Shown: positions 32,601 through 44,600, counted from the first letter of the stretch. The stretch is 64,000 nucleotides of DNA from an uncultured Holophagales bacterium (GCA_963842525.1 CAWJGT010000003.1:544001-608000), one strand, 5' to 3'. A program made the numbers and translations. The notes: generated by a model from the letters alone, not told the origin.

Positions 32601-35600
32601 TGACGAAGAACCCGATCAGGCCCTCGGTCTCCAACTGGTTGCGGCCGGCGACGGGTGAGCCCACCGCGAAGTCCTGTTGGCCGCTGTGGCGGGACAGCAG
32701 CGCCTGGAATCCGGCGAGGAGGACCATGAACGCCGTCGCCCCCGCGCGCCGGCCCAGGGCCTCGACCCGCTGCGGCAGCTCCTCCGGCACTCGCACCGCC
32801 CGCACCGCGCCGCGGACGCTCTGCGCCGCCGGCCGCGGTCGATCGGTGGGCAGCTCCAGCACCGGCGGCAGTCCGGCGAGCCGACGCCGCCAGTCGCCGA
32901 TCTCGCGCGCCAGCATCTCCCCCTGCAGCCAGCCGCGCTGCCAGACCGCGAAGTCCGTGTACTGTACCGGGAGCTCCGGCAGGAGCGACGGCTCGCCGAC
33001 GGCGAACGCCGCGTAGAGGGAGGTGATCTCGCGGACGAGGATACCGATCGACCAGGCGTCGCTGACGATGTGGTGCATGGTCAAGAAGAAGGCGTGATCC
33101 TCTTGTTCCTCCCCTGGGGTGGCCAACCGCAGCAGCACGCCGCGTAGGAGCGGACCGCGGGAGAGGTCGAACGGGCGGCCGGCCTCTTCGCCGGCCAGGC
33201 GGAGGGCCGCCGCCTCGCGGGCTCTTTCCGGCAAGCCCGACAGATCGACCAGGGGGAGCCCGAAAGGCGCCGCCGGCTGGATCACCTGCACCGGCAGGCC
33301 GTCGCGAACGGCGAAGACGGTACGCAGGGCCTCATGGCGGCGCACGATCTCGCCGAGAGAGAGGGCCAGGACCCGGCGGTCCAGAGGCCCTTCGATGCGC
33401 AAGGCCACCGGAATGTTGTAGAGCGGGCTGTCCGGTTCGAGCTGGTCCAGGAACCAGAGCCGCTCCTGCGCGAAGGACAGGAGGGTGGAAGCCTCCCGCG
33501 GCGACGCGACGAGAGGCGGCGCGAGCGACCCCGCGCGAGGCCCTTGCAGCCGCTCGACGGCGGCGGCGAGGCCGGCGATCGTGGGGCTCTCGAAGAAGTC
33601 GGGGAGAGGCAGGTCGATCTCGAAGCGGCGGCGCACCCGGGTGAGGACCTGGATGGCGGACAGGGAGTGACCCCCGAGAGCGAAGAAGTCGTGGCCGGTG
33701 CCGAGGCCGGACCGGCCCAGCACCTCTTCCCAGATCTCCACCAAAACCGCCTCGGTTGCTGTGGCCGGAACGACGGGGGCCGCGCCGGCGGCGAGGGCCA
33801 TCTCGGGCTCGGGCAGGGCCTTGCGGTCGATCTTGCCGTTGGCGGACAGCGGCAGGGCGGAGAGGAAGACGAAGGTGTCCGGGATCATGTAGCCGGGAAG
33901 CGAGCGGGCCAGGTGCTCCTGGAGCGCGGCAGTCGAGATGATGTCTCCGGCCTCCCCCGCGGCCACCACATAGGCGCACAGGGTCTTCTGCCCGGTCCGG
34001 TCGCCGCGGGCCAGCACCACTGCCTCCCGCACGCCGGGAGCCCGGGAGAGCTGGCTCTCGATCTCGCCGAGCTCGATGCGGAACCCGCGGACCTTGACCT
34101 GGTGGTCGCTGCGGCCGAGAAACTCGATTTCGCCCTGCGGCAGCATCCGCCCCAGGTCGCCGGTGCGGTAGAGGCGGCGGCCGGGCCCTGCGAAGGGATC
34201 GGGCAGATAGGAGGCCGCGGTCTTCTCGGGGTCTCCGGCATAGCCGCGGGCCACGCCTTCGCCGCCGATGTAGAGCTCGCCCACCACCCCGGGGGGAACC
34301 AGCTCCAGAGAGCGATCCAGGAGGTAGAAGGTGTTGTTGTCCAGCGGCCGGCCGTAGGGGATGCTGAGCCAGGCCTCGTCGATCCAGTCGACGGGATGGA
34401 AGATGGACCAGACCGTGGCCTCGGTGGCGCCGCCCAGGCTGATCACGCGCAGGTTGGGGAAGAACCGCCGGGCGCGTTCGGGGAGCGTGAGCGGGATCCA
34501 GTCTCCGCTCAGGAAGGCGAGGCGGAGGTCCTCGCCGCGGAAGCCCGGATCGGTCTCCTCCAGGTACTGGACGAGCAGGCCGAGGGTCGAGGGAACCGAA
34601 TTCCAGAAGGTGATCCCATGCGCGCTGACCAGCCGCAGCAGGGCGGCCGGATCCTGTACCTCCTCCTGCCGCGCAAGCACCACCTCGCCGTCAGCCGCGA
34701 GGGTGCCGAAGAGATCGAAGACCGAGAGGTCGAAGCAGACGGAGGAGACCATCAGCACGCGGTCGCCGGGGCCGACGGCCATCTCGCGGTTGACCCACGC
34801 GATCAGGTTGGCGGCGCTGTGGTGCGCGATCATCACCCCCTTGGGGGTGCCGGTCGAGCCGGAGGTGTAGATGGTGTAGGCGAGGTCCTCGGGCCGGGGG
34901 CGTAGCGGCACGGGCGCGTCCTGGTAGGCGGTCAGATCCTCCGGCAGGTCCTCCAGTAGAAACGAGATTGCAGACTGCCGGGCGATGAAGCTCTTGCGGG
35001 CCGGCGGGTAGGAGGGCTCCAACGGGACGTAGGCGGCGCCCGCCTTGAGCACGCCGAAGAGCGCCGCGATCAGCTCGGGGGAGCGCTCCAGGCAGACTCC
35101 GACGTTGTCGCCGGGCTGCACGCCGCGCGCAAGGAGGAGCCGCGCCACCCGGTTGGCCAGGCGCTCGAGCTCGCCGTAGGAGAGCGAGCGGTCGCCGCAG
35201 CGGACGGCGGGGAGATCCGGATGGCGGGCGGCCTGCTCCTCGAAGAAGCTGTGGAGGGGCCTCTCGCGGGGGTAGGCGCGGGCCGTGTCGTTGTAGACCG
35301 CGACGAGCTGGCCGCGTTCCTCCGCGCTCAGCAGGGCTTCCGCGGCGAGCGGTGTATCGATCCCGCGGATCAGCGCCTCGAGGATCTGCCGGTAGAGGGC
35401 CAGCGCCAGCTCGATGTCCGCCTCCTCGAAGAAACGCGGGAGGTACTTGAGCTGCAGGAAGGGGCGGCTCTGCGTGGCCATGACCTCCAGGTCGAACAGG
35501 GTATTCGTCATCTCGTCGAGGCGCAGTTCGGGAAACACGCGCGCAACCTCCCCGGCCGACGCCTGGAAGAGGGCGTTGTCGCGGACTTCCTCGATGAGAT

Positions 35601-41600: not shown

Positions 41601-44600
41601 GCCCGCTCTTCCAATGCGCCGTATGTCAACGACTCCCTGCCGCAGACGGCAGCGACGGCTTCAGGCGTGCGTGCGGCCCAGGCCTCGAACAGCTCGTGGA
41701 TCAGGGTGGCTTCGTCGCAAGCTGCCAGGGTGTCGTTCCACTCCACCAGAACCTGGTGACGCTCGGAGTCCGGCAGCAGCGGCAGGTCCGCGACCCCGAG
41801 GTCCGGCGCGGCCAGGGCCGCGGTGAGAAGCCGCTCGTACTGGAGGATCAGGCGGTCGATGGTCGCGGCATCGAACAGGTCGGTGGCGTGCTCGACCGTG
41901 CCAAGGAGGCCGCCGCTCCATTCCTCCAGGCTGAGCAGGAGGTCAAACTTCGCCGTGGTCCCGGCCCCGCTCACCGGCCGCAGGCGCAGGTTCTGGATCT
42001 CCAGGCTCTCGAAGGGAGCGTTCTGCAGAGCAAGCACCACCTGGAACAAGGGTGTGTGGGCGAGGCTCCTCTCCGGCGTGAGCTCCTGGACCAGTTTTTC
42101 GAACGGCACGTCCTGGTGCGCATGGGCGGCCAGCGCGGTCTCGCGGACTCGGCCGAGCAGCTCCCGGAACGTGGGCTCGCCGGCCCTGCCGCCGGGCAGG
42201 TTTCCAGTTAAATCGCCACGCAGCACCAGCGTATTGACGAAGAACCCGATCAGCCCCTCGGTCTCTATCCGGTTGCGGCCGGCGACCGGCGTGCCTACCG
42301 CGAGGTCCTGCTGCCCGCTGCACCGCGCCAGAAGGGCCTGGAATCCAGCCAGCAGCACCATGAAGAGCGTCGCTCCCTCGCGCCGGCTCAGGGTCTGGGC
42401 CTGCCGGGTGAGCTCGGCCGGCAACCGCACGGGCCGCAAGGCGCCGCGGAAGCTCAGCACCGCGGGCCGCGGCCGGTCGGTGGGGAGCTCCAGCAGAGGC
42501 GGCAGGCCGGCGAGCTGCCGGCGCCAGAAGGAGATTTCGTTCTCCAGGGCTTCGCCGTGCAGCCAGGAGTGCTGCCAGACTGCGAAATCCGCGTACTGCA
42601 CCGTCGGCTCGGGCAGGGGGGACGGCCTGCCTTCGGCAAACGCCGCGTAGAGGGCCGTGACCTCGCGGATCAGGATGCCCATCGACCAGCCGTCACTGAC
42701 GATGTGGTGCATGGTCAGCGCGGCGACATGATCCATCTGTCCCCCTGGGGCGGCCAAGCGCAGCAGCACGCCGCGCAGGAGCGGGCCGCGCGCGAGATCG
42801 AACGGGCGGGTGGCCTCTTCGCCGGCCAGGGTGAGGGCGAGCGCCTCACGCCGGCTCTCCGGCAGGTCCGACAGGTCGATCATGGGGAGCCCGAAGGGCG
42901 CCGCTGGCAGGATCACCTGCACCGGCGCGCCGTCCCGCTCGGCGAAGACCGTGCGCAAGGCTTCATGGCGCCGGACGATCTCCCCGAGGCTCGCCGCCAG
43001 CACCGCCGAGGCCAGCGGTCCTTCGACGCGCAGCGCCACCGGAATGTTGTAGAGCGGGCTTCCCGGTTCGAGCTGATCGATGAACCACAGGCGCTGCTGG
43101 CCGAACGACAGGGGCAGGTGCCCCTCGCGCGGCGCCTGCACGATGGGGGGGGCTCCTGCCGCCTCACCCCGAGAGCGCAGGGTTTCCACTTTGCCGGCCA
43201 GCGCCGCCACGGTCGGCGCCTCGAAGAGCGTGCGCAGAGGCATCTCCACGCCGAACGCCTCCCGGACCCGCGAGACAGCCTGCGTCGCGTGCAGAGAGTG
43301 GCCGCCCAGGGCAAAGAAGCTCTCGGTGCGGCCTACGCGCGGCACGCCCAGCAGCTCGGCGAACATCCCCGCCAGCAGCTCCTCGGTCCAGGTCCGGGGC
43401 GCCTCCCCGCCAGCCGGTTCCGCTTGAGCATCGGCCCTCTCCCGCCAGGTCCGCGCCAGCTCCTTGCGGTCCACCTTGCCATTGGGTGTCAGCGGCAGGG
43501 CCGTGAAGAACACGAACCGGGAGGGCACCATGTGCTCCGGCAGGAGGCCCAGCAGGTGGCGGCGCAACTCGCCGGCCTCGACCTCTCCGGCCACACAGGC
43601 CACCAGACTCGTGCCCCCGGCCGGATCTTCGACCGCCAGCACCGCCGCCTCCCGCACTGCGCCGTGCCCGGCGAGCGCCGCCTCGATCTCGCCCGGCTCG
43701 ATCCGGAAGCCGCGGATCTTGACCTGGTCATCGATGCGGCCGAGGAACTCGAGGTTGCCGTCCGGCCGCAGCCGGACCAGGTCGCCCGTCCGGTAGAGGC
43801 GCTCTCCCTCTCTTCCCATCTCGTGGGCGAACGGATCGGGGACGAAGCGCTCGGCGGTCAGCTCGGGACGCCCCAGGTAGCCCCGCGCGAGGCCGTCGCC
43901 GCCAATGCACAGCTCGCCCGGCGCCCCGAATGGCACTGGCCGCAGGCGCCGGCCGACCACGTAGAGGCGCGTGTTGGCGATCGGGCGTCCAATCGCCACG
44001 GGGCCTGCCGCGGCATCGCCCGGCGCAATCTCGTGGACGCAACAGCCGACGGTGGCCTCGGTCGGGCCGTACTCGTTGATCAGCCGTGTCTGCGGAGCGT
44101 GCTCGCGCCAGGGCGCGACGCTCTCGCCTCGCAGCGCTTCGCCGCCGATCACCAGGGCCTTTGTGCCACCCGCGTACTCTCCGGGACGCAGCTCGCGGCG
44201 CAAGACGTCGAGGTGCGCCGGGGTGAGCTTGACCAGGCTGAAATCCGGGGCGTTGCGCAGAGCGGCGGCCAACGCTTCGAGCCCCTCATCGAGAAGACGG
44301 ACCGCGGTGCCCGCGGCCAGCGGCACGAGGAGACTGGTGACGGTGAGGTCGAACCCGATGGCCGAGTGGACAGGGGCGCCTGTCCCCTCACTGGCCGCGT
44401 AGGCTTGCCGCGCCCAGAGCAGGTAGTTGACCAGGCCGCGGTGCGGGATCATCACCCCCTTCGGCCGGCCCGTCGAGCCGGAAGTGTAGATGACGTACGC
44501 CAGGTCGGCCGGACCCGCGGAGCGTGGCAGGTCTGCTTCGACTTGCCGGGAGATCTCGTCACGGTTGTCCGCGAGCCAGTCGTCCGTGAGCAGGAGGGAG

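Follow-up and report, generated by a model that had tools for sequence, protein, structure and literature searches.

It is only in recent years that dehydrating condensation (C) domains of nonribosomal peptide synthetases (NRPSs), known as CmodAA domains, were characterised, and about 50 sequences underlie the hallmarks published for them. For the thiamyxin products, the published account assigns the conversion of Ser to dehydroalanine (Dha) to the modAA-type C domain of the next module (PMC10100342), and for AzeB C2 dehydration on the upstream carrier is described as shown in vitro (bioRxiv 2026 preprint). The marks given for CmodAA domains comprise the motif [K/R]SVLLAAH before C5, with K/R in 50/50 and His in 48/50 domains, and one or more Arg where C6 begins, which none of the domains lacks; reduced activity is described for the AmbE mutants in R1605 and H1632 (PMC11342130). 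Here we analyse a 64,000-nt stretch of DNA (the window; coordinates are window positions, about 71% G+C) from an uncultured Holophagales bacterium, in which a giant NRPS is encoded on the minus strand, spanning from beyond 64000 down to 11683. The subject is the C domain of its module 10, which stands between a Ser module and a Cys-type A domain. Its sequence assigns this domain to X1 (subclade X1a), a family that is sister to the dehydrating CmodAA domains and so far uncharacterised, and on a balance somewhat better than even we expect that it turns Ser into Dha and then joins this to Cys.

Module 9 (minus strand, as are all domains of the NRPS) contains an adenylation (A) domain at 36985-38625 with the Ser-type pocket code DVWHVSLVD and a thiolation (T) domain at 36799-36990 with GGDSI at 36904-36918. 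The C domain of module 10 (35302-36756), recognised by motifs, by phmmer search of the Protein Data Bank (PDB) and in trees, has an intact HHAILDGWS and is followed by an A domain (33742-35361) with the Cys-type code DLFNFSLVW and a T domain (33556-33747) with GGHSL, matched by Pfam PP-binding in the tile 32872-34431. An initial sequence-only reading had picked out this C domain by six quoted motifs, and all of them were found in the minus-strand frame: besides GGDSI, these are YHDQ (36592-36603), RHPILRSAF (36499-36525), HHAILDGWS (36247-36273), GCFLNTFPLR (35773-35802) and LNFMDFH (35599-35619). The same reading had noted that no epimerization (E) domain follows the Ser-module T domain. This was confirmed by the order of Pfam tiles around the Ser module (A, A_C, PP-binding, a single Condensation, AMP-binding), from which it follows that one C-like domain comes after T without E. 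After the sole other GGDSI T domain of the NRPS (27292-27306) come an E domain (25744-27225) and, behind it, a C domain of the DCL type (24334-25761).

Hidden Markov models (HMMs) were built from the window's own domains and the whole source genome (G000; 9.95 Mb, 34 contigs), which holds 266 full and 137 partial C-like domains, was annotated with them. Tree 1 (FastTree) comprised 289 C-like domains, the 266 full ones of the source genome and 23 of related loci. The module 10 C domain was placed in clade X (n=30, support 0.967), away from the LCL, DCL and E domains of the window; X is made up of X1 (n=21, 0.999), which holds this domain, and X2 (n=9, 1.0). The DCL domains are gathered in clade D (n=19, 0.958), distinct from X, in which 11 of the 16 members from the source genome come after E. 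An IQ-TREE -fast analysis of 54 sequences, read unrooted, gave approximate likelihood-ratio values of 99.9 for X1 and 100 for (X1+X2) versus (DCL+E+LCL). A scan of 1.84 billion representative proteins yielded 8,922 matches at an E-value <= 1e-30, the best 150 of which were parsed into 681 full C-like domains. In tree 2, built from 389 D-clade sequences drawn from these 150 proteins, from the labelled loci and from the source genome itself, superclade X (n=202, support 1.0) split into X2 (67) and X1 (135, 0.998), and the module 10 C domain was found in X1a (n=17, 1.0), sister to X1b (n=29); the clade labels rest on hallmark motifs, PDB similarity and context in place of verified CmodAA or dual E/C references. 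The domain is thus placed by sequence in X1, sister to and outside the canonical CmodAA clade (X2), and lies outside the DCL superclade in all trees. The sequence-only reading had proposed phylogeny as a check, with grouping among dual E/C or DCL domains, together with D-Ser and no dehydration, as the outcome against it; the position outside DCL and next to CmodAA agrees with its proposal, the position outside the canonical CmodAA clade weakens it. Its remark that this C domain is unlike the others of the window was borne out: the difference is a real feature at the level of the domain and no chance match of motifs.

In the phmmer comparison of the module 10 C domain with all PDB chains McyA (8jbr, 174 bits) and the CmodAA domain of AmbE (7r9x, 126 bits) came first, and DCL-type chains ranked next with 107-123 bits. 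As controls, the window's own post-E DCL domain gave McyB 424, PvdL 342, SrfA-C 272, McyA 134 and AmbE 124 bits, and an X2 member among the D-clade domains of the source genome gave McyA 407 and AmbE 242 bits. Relatives were found by a DNA pattern scan at nine loci in metagenome-assembled genomes of Thermoanaerobaculia and Holophagales, at 50-80% identity, and there are more distant ones in Bacteroidota and other groups as well as one source-genome paralogue at 73% identity. In a phylum-wide scan at an E-value <= 1e-90 the source genome was the sole match among 401 genomes, a weak negative as three candidates per genome were scored.

All published hallmarks are present in X2 (K/R 63/67, LAAH His 64/67, at least one C6 Arg 67/67; patterns PL[K/R]S[VL]LLAAH and HRR[FY]P), which identifies this clade as the canonical CmodAA domains; eight domains of this type occur in the source genome. 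The module 10 C domain reads PLQALFLAAH and KEHE-IPL at the corresponding places. It keeps the LAAH His, the Thr at +22 and the His at +27 equivalent to AmbE H1632, and within X1a (tree 2 alignment) these are found in 17/17, 17/17 and 16/17 members, respectively. In the DCL superclade both the His and the Thr at +22 are outside the five commonest residues at their own columns, and those five cover 175/175 rows. In the own-genome alignment the two residues occur in 0/19 DCL rows, and among 224 rows of LCL and other domains the Thr occurs in two and the His is outside the six commonest residues, which cover 223. X1b has K/R in 28 of 29 members, and across all 135 X1 members K/R, His and C6 Arg vary. 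X1 has a mark of its own in the Cys of the C5 motif (GCFLNT in the module 10 C domain), present in 133/135 X1 and 17/17 X1a sequences and in 0/67 of X2, where Leu or Met is found. A Cys at this place occurs in two of the 19 rows of the own-genome DCL clade, and in the 175-row DCL superclade the five commonest residues make up 164 rows, with Cys not among them. The module 10 C domain is not a textbook CmodAA domain and shows a partial hallmark pattern.

The arrangement of a Ser module with a GGDSI-type T domain, an X1a C domain and a Cys-type A domain is a recurrent cassette. Thirteen X1a cassettes were counted in the source genome and loci L001-L009, the donor module being Ser-type in ten, Asn-type in two (L005, L007) and unreadable in one (L006); the T motif is GGDSI in 12 and GGDSM in one, and the acceptor code is Cys-like, DL[YFW][NS][FL]SL[VI]W, in all 12 that could be read. 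Six further representative proteins belong to X1a, with Asn (three), Ser (one), Thr (one) and Thr-like (one) donors, and the pairing of Ser, CmodAA-like domain and Cys that the sequence-only reading proposed to look for in other biosynthetic gene clusters (BGCs) does recur. Among the eight own-genome and representative-protein members of X1a the acceptor is Cys-type in 6/6 readable cases (four new proteins and two own-genome domains that are also among the 13 cassettes), and DLx[N/D]xSLxW acceptors go with the wider X1a-c clade. Two tandem Ser-X1a-Cys cassettes are present in each of L002 and L003, giving alternating Ser-Cys-Ser-Cys modules, while Ser modules located before LCL domains keep GGHSL and not GGDSI (L001, L008).

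The donor context of the whole X family was examined in the 199 members of the own genome and the representative proteins that could be parsed: 191 directly follow T, two follow an A match, the remaining ones show no upstream match and none follows E. The preceding T domains are nearly all of GGDS type; in X2 this holds for 62/67 rows (59 of the 64 preceded by T, three T matches being without GGxS). GGDSI without E is therefore characteristic of the X family, and alone it is no sign of epimerisation. Ser/Thr-like donor A codes precede 114 of 169 readable X members (67%), compared with 4/23 readable T-preceded members of the DCL superclade and 40/287 A domains genome-wide in the source genome, counts that come from kin sequences and query-similar proteins and are not independent. 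The remaining X donors are mostly Asn/Asp-like or Val/Ile-like, with almost no Leu-type codes; donors in X2 are Asn/Asp-like in 12/62 readable cases. Non-Ser/Thr donors do not exclude dehydration, since the account of cryopeptin (PMC12181424) proposes dehydrovaline formation by a hydroxylase and modAA-type C domains that come after Val modules.

We infer dehydration, and any later fate of Dha, along the following lines. The X1a C domain would remove the alpha proton of the Ser thioester on the upstream T domain, as CmodAA domains do, and the beta-hydroxyl group would be eliminated (E1cB) to give Dha; the Dha donor would then be condensed with Cys on the next T domain, leaving ...-X-Dha-Cys-... 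on the assembly line.

Several points weigh against dehydration, among them the footing of the clade labels and the kinship behind the donor counts. The AmbE score (126 bits) is in effect no higher than those of the DCL chains (107-123 bits), McyA alone standing out. The K/R site is occupied by Gln in the module 10 C domain, and in X1a by Q in 12/17, K in three, R in one and P in one; both C6 arginines are absent, and 0/17 X1a members have R or K there. The likeness to the modAA domain of McyA claimed by the sequence-only reading therefore held for the top PDB matches (McyA and AmbE) and the sister position to CmodAA, and failed for these residues. Asn-type donors precede X1a domains in L005 and L007 (2/12 readable) and in the proteins P0006, P0010 and P0035, with the code DLTK[VI]GEVG and a GGDSI T domain, P0010 clustering with L007. 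With Asn modules in front of these X1a members dehydration is not assured, since Asn is not dehydratable without prior beta-hydroxylation; no beta-hydroxylase was seen when sought beside the Asn-donor L007, where a luciferase-like monooxygenase and, besides, an asparagine synthase were all that was found, after the NRPS. L005-L009 resemble one BGC family, with the same DARHL-type module after Cys and with Asn as donor in two and Ser in two, and this mix of donors is the strongest point for a shared, non-dehydrating activity.

Such an activity might resemble that of dual E/C domains: the Ser alpha proton would be removed and the centre reprotonated, so that D-Ser would stand beside L-Cys and no Dha would arise. 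We regard this as possible, though rather unlikely. One shared activity fits the Asn (L005, L007) and Ser (L008, L009) donors at like positions, Cys-type and then DARHL-type modules following in all four. The K/R and RR residues tied to CmodAA function are absent, and the first chemical step is described as common to CmodAA and E/C domains (bioRxiv 2026 preprint). The GGDSI motif also precedes E domains in the source genome; it is, however, not discriminating, since GGDS-type T domains are found before canonical CmodAA domains (X2) as well. The module 10 C domain lies outside the DCL superclade, which is the home of 27 T-preceded, E-less dual E/C candidates, and the donors of those candidates are diverse (4/23 readable Ser/Thr-like). 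A general epimerising family would be expected to have broad, Leu-rich donors, whereas those of the X family are biased to Ser/Thr and almost devoid of Leu-type codes. The same protein moreover possesses a separate E and DCL pair for epimerisation. Dual E/C domains carry an N-terminal extended His motif, HH[I/L]xxxxGD; in the C1 region of the module 10 C domain (GMVYYTLLLPVQPVYHDQ) neither His nor GD occupies the aligned position, and this region (GMVYYTLLLPVQP) is also without the GMLFH..(S/G)G.Y pattern of the DCL clade.

The absence of the K/R residue (Gln in 12/17) and of the C6 arginines (0/17) from X1a would equally suit a plain C domain of CmodAA descent that has lost its modifying activity and joins L-Ser unchanged to L-Cys, the HHxxxDG that condensation requires being intact. 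This is improbable in view of the residues kept across X1a, His in 17/17, Thr in 17/17 and the H1632-equivalent His in 16/17, and of the T motif, which is GGDS[IM] in 13/13 cassettes as against GGHSL in Ser modules before LCL domains. The retention of a special T motif in all cassettes argues for continued selection on an activity at the donor side. Formation of Dha by the module 10 C domain is the reading that we favour.

The fate of Dha would depend on its neighbours. The core of the module 10 A domain has as its best single-stretch PDB match the Cys-activating BmdB (254.7 bits), with which it shares LSGDWIPL and a 12-residue stretch; the pockets read DLYNLSLIW in BmdB and DLFNFSLVW here. 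In the published description the Cys pocket consists of D235, L236, Y/W239, N278, L/M299, L/M322, I/V330 and W331 (PMC12283262). When S301 is added from Cys codes listed there, such as DLYNLSLIWK, the module 10 code fits this consensus at 7/9 positions, 239 and 299 being F. The prediction of Cys as the module 10 residue is well supported. Module 8, upstream of the Ser module, comprises an ordinary LCL domain with HHIVSDGWS (41747-43222; in-house C HMM, tree placement and Pfam Condensation), an A domain (40166-41797) with the code DLFDFSLVW, read by hmmalign, and a T domain (39980-40171) with GGHSL (Pfam PP-binding in the tile 39890-41449). Its substrate is uncertain because of Asp at position 278, where the published Cys consensus has Asn (PMC12283262). 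PDB matches of this A domain do not single out BmdB, and in the source genome Cy domains precede the canonical Cys codes, LCL or DCL domains those of the Asp278 type. By its sequence the module 8 A domain is a member of the Cys-like subfamily; for its substrate Cys, Ser or 2,3-diaminopropionate (Dap) are our guesses. A Gly-type assignment of the module 8 and 10 A domains was rejected after a core-only search: the top match of the whole domains in PDB, LgrA, owed its score to the sum of two A domains. For the exact pocket codes of both modules no match was found in the literature. The code DLFDFSLVW occurs at least three times in the assembly line (40166-41797, 54403-55878 and 61083-62027, minus strand), and DLxD.SLxW-type A domains are the acceptors behind 23/27 readable X1b domains in the global sample.

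The sequence-only reading had placed Dha between two Cys residues; the downstream A domain is indeed Cys-type, and the upstream residue is uncertain given Asp278. It further expected a lanthionine-type bridge or a seven-membered 1,4-thiazepan-5-one, formed by attack of an adjacent or flanking Cys thiol on Dha. This outcome, which is a sub-case of the Ser-to-Dha reading and not additional to it, seems to us very improbable. Conjugate addition is reported for some CmodAA domains of the BlmVI-C2 type, but such domains are described as lacking both His of HHxxxDG (PMC11342130), which is intact here. What speaks for the proposal is indirect: the acceptor is Cys-type wherever it could be read in X1a (12/12 and 6/6, two own-genome domains being in both counts), the DLx[N/D]xSLxW acceptors extend across X1a-c, and the C5 Cys separates X1 (133/135) from X2 (0/67). 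C domains and downstream A domains are in general inherited as units, and both the constant Cys acceptor and the C5 Cys are explicable by common descent of C-A units. No feature of the sequence speaks for the thioether or the thiazepanone, and neither the window nor the surroundings of the NRPS start showed a LanC-like or other cyclase gene; the Asn-donor members cannot form Dha and the upstream Cys is in doubt. In a literature search no NRPS-made lanthionine came up, nor in another anything relevant on NRPSs of Thermoanaerobaculia. With as little likelihood, X1a-c might be a widespread family that joins dehydrated Ser/Thr to a Cys-type acceptor, the unit being closed to a thioether by the domain or spontaneously. 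The C5 Cys, the loss of the C6 arginines and, in X1a, also the Gln at the K/R site might, no less speculatively, serve as its marks. In a search for tailoring genes of the cluster, a VKOR-DsbA/thioredoxin fusion gene and a pyridoxal phosphate-dependent Ser/Thr-dehydratase-like (PALP) gene were seen just beyond the NRPS start and divergent from the NRPS (C3:626358-628628; L041:2358-4628). They might conceivably be linked to a Cys-rich product, but neither reaches a curated cut-off for a specific function, and they do not count as evidence of thioether formation.

In the LCL-type C domain of the Ser module (38575-40015) the reading frame shifts by +1 near 39194, and the domain shows up as two partial C matches (39155-40015 and 38575-39261). 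The sequence-only reading treated 33550-43120 as one region, which as assembled is not an intact open reading frame (ORF). A soil-metagenome contig about 95% identical spans 38700-39402 with one base fewer at 39194, and in silico removal of this base fuses two ORFs into one of 11,521 aa with no stops. It is a single contig that bridges the site, and the matches from sequencing runs are contigs covering at most 0.24 of the stretch. The frameshift is probably an assembly indel error, as indicated by the contig without the base, the partial C matches and the many frames into which the 53.5-64 kb stretch is broken; real decay of the NRPS could instead lie behind the frame breaks.

Downstream (3') of module 10 the assembly line continues with two C-A-T modules, an A(Thr)-T(GGDSI)-E-DCL unit and more modules, and ends with KS-AT-ACP-R. 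This terminus (11686-16431, minus strand) consists of a polyketide synthase (PKS) module, KS-AT-ACP, and a thioester-reductase domain (NAD_binding_4), an order which implies one malonate extension and reductive release. A convergent PKS/NRPS gene occupies 2-11294 on the plus strand (T-KS-AT-T-C-A-T-TE with a C-terminal DUF6625); in its C domain, too, the frame is broken, near 5000, and after it comes a gene for a MacB/FtsX-type transporter. At 45215-47793 (minus strand) two ORFs meet at 46249: the first closes with a complete C domain (46330-47793), and the second opens with a C-like domain that is degenerate and truncated, its HHxxxDG being changed to QPSLAADG; further tandem C-C pairs are present in the source genome at C34:293279-296151 and C3:525498-528358. 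The NRPS load of this genome is extraordinary, with 287 A domains with readable codes and 425 A-domain matches when fragments are included.

X1 accounts for 135 of the 202 clade-X domains of tree 2 and is a large sister family with partial hallmarks and marks of its own. If it dehydrates, K/R and RR are not essential and the residue rules will have to be rewritten, and genome-mining tools miss or mislabel many sites of Dha and dehydrobutyrine (Dhb). If it epimerises, it would represent a second, independent route to E/C activity. The fixed pairing with Cys-type acceptors offers a defined, testable cassette for the fate of a Dha-Cys unit on the assembly line.

Among the known systems the CmodAA domains (McyA 8jbr, AmbE 7r9x, AlbB C2/C3, AzeB C2, Crz1 C2) come closest, and the clade with their hallmarks (X2) is the sister clade in all trees. 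The module 10 C domain is like them in its place directly after a GGDS-type T domain with no E, in the Ser donor, in the intact HHxxxDG and in the conserved LAAH His, Thr at +22 and AmbE-H1632-equivalent His. It is unlike them in the change of K/R to Gln, the absent C6 arginines, a C5 Cys (GCFLNT) in place of Leu/Met of X2, the Asn modules before some X1a members and the score against McyA (174 bits as compared with 407 for the canonical member from the same genome). With the dual E/C domains of Pseudomonas-type lipopeptide synthetases it shares the position after a GGDSI-type T domain without a separate E and the need to abstract an alpha proton from the donor; in a comparison made without a verified dual E/C sequence, it differs by lying outside the DCL superclade, by the lack of TLNT..QGAW and GMLFH..G.Y and by the bias of the X family to Ser/Thr donors. 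The beta-lactam-forming NocB C5 has an extra third His, and none is present in the module 10 C domain. NocB C5, BlmVI-C2, TlmVI-C2 as well as ZbmVI-C2 are described as using a Dha intermediate in a second reaction (PMC11342130, PMC10880069) and are precedents for a further fate of Dha. Compared by published description, the Blm-type domains lack both His of HHxxxDG (PMC11342130), whereas WHHAILDGWS is found here. Lanthipeptides are ribosomal products with a dedicated dehydratase and cyclase, unlike the case considered here, where a LanC-like gene was found neither in the window nor close to the NRPS start; the chemistry proposed, from Ser through Dha to Michael addition of a thiol, is the same as in their LanB/LanC and LanM routes.

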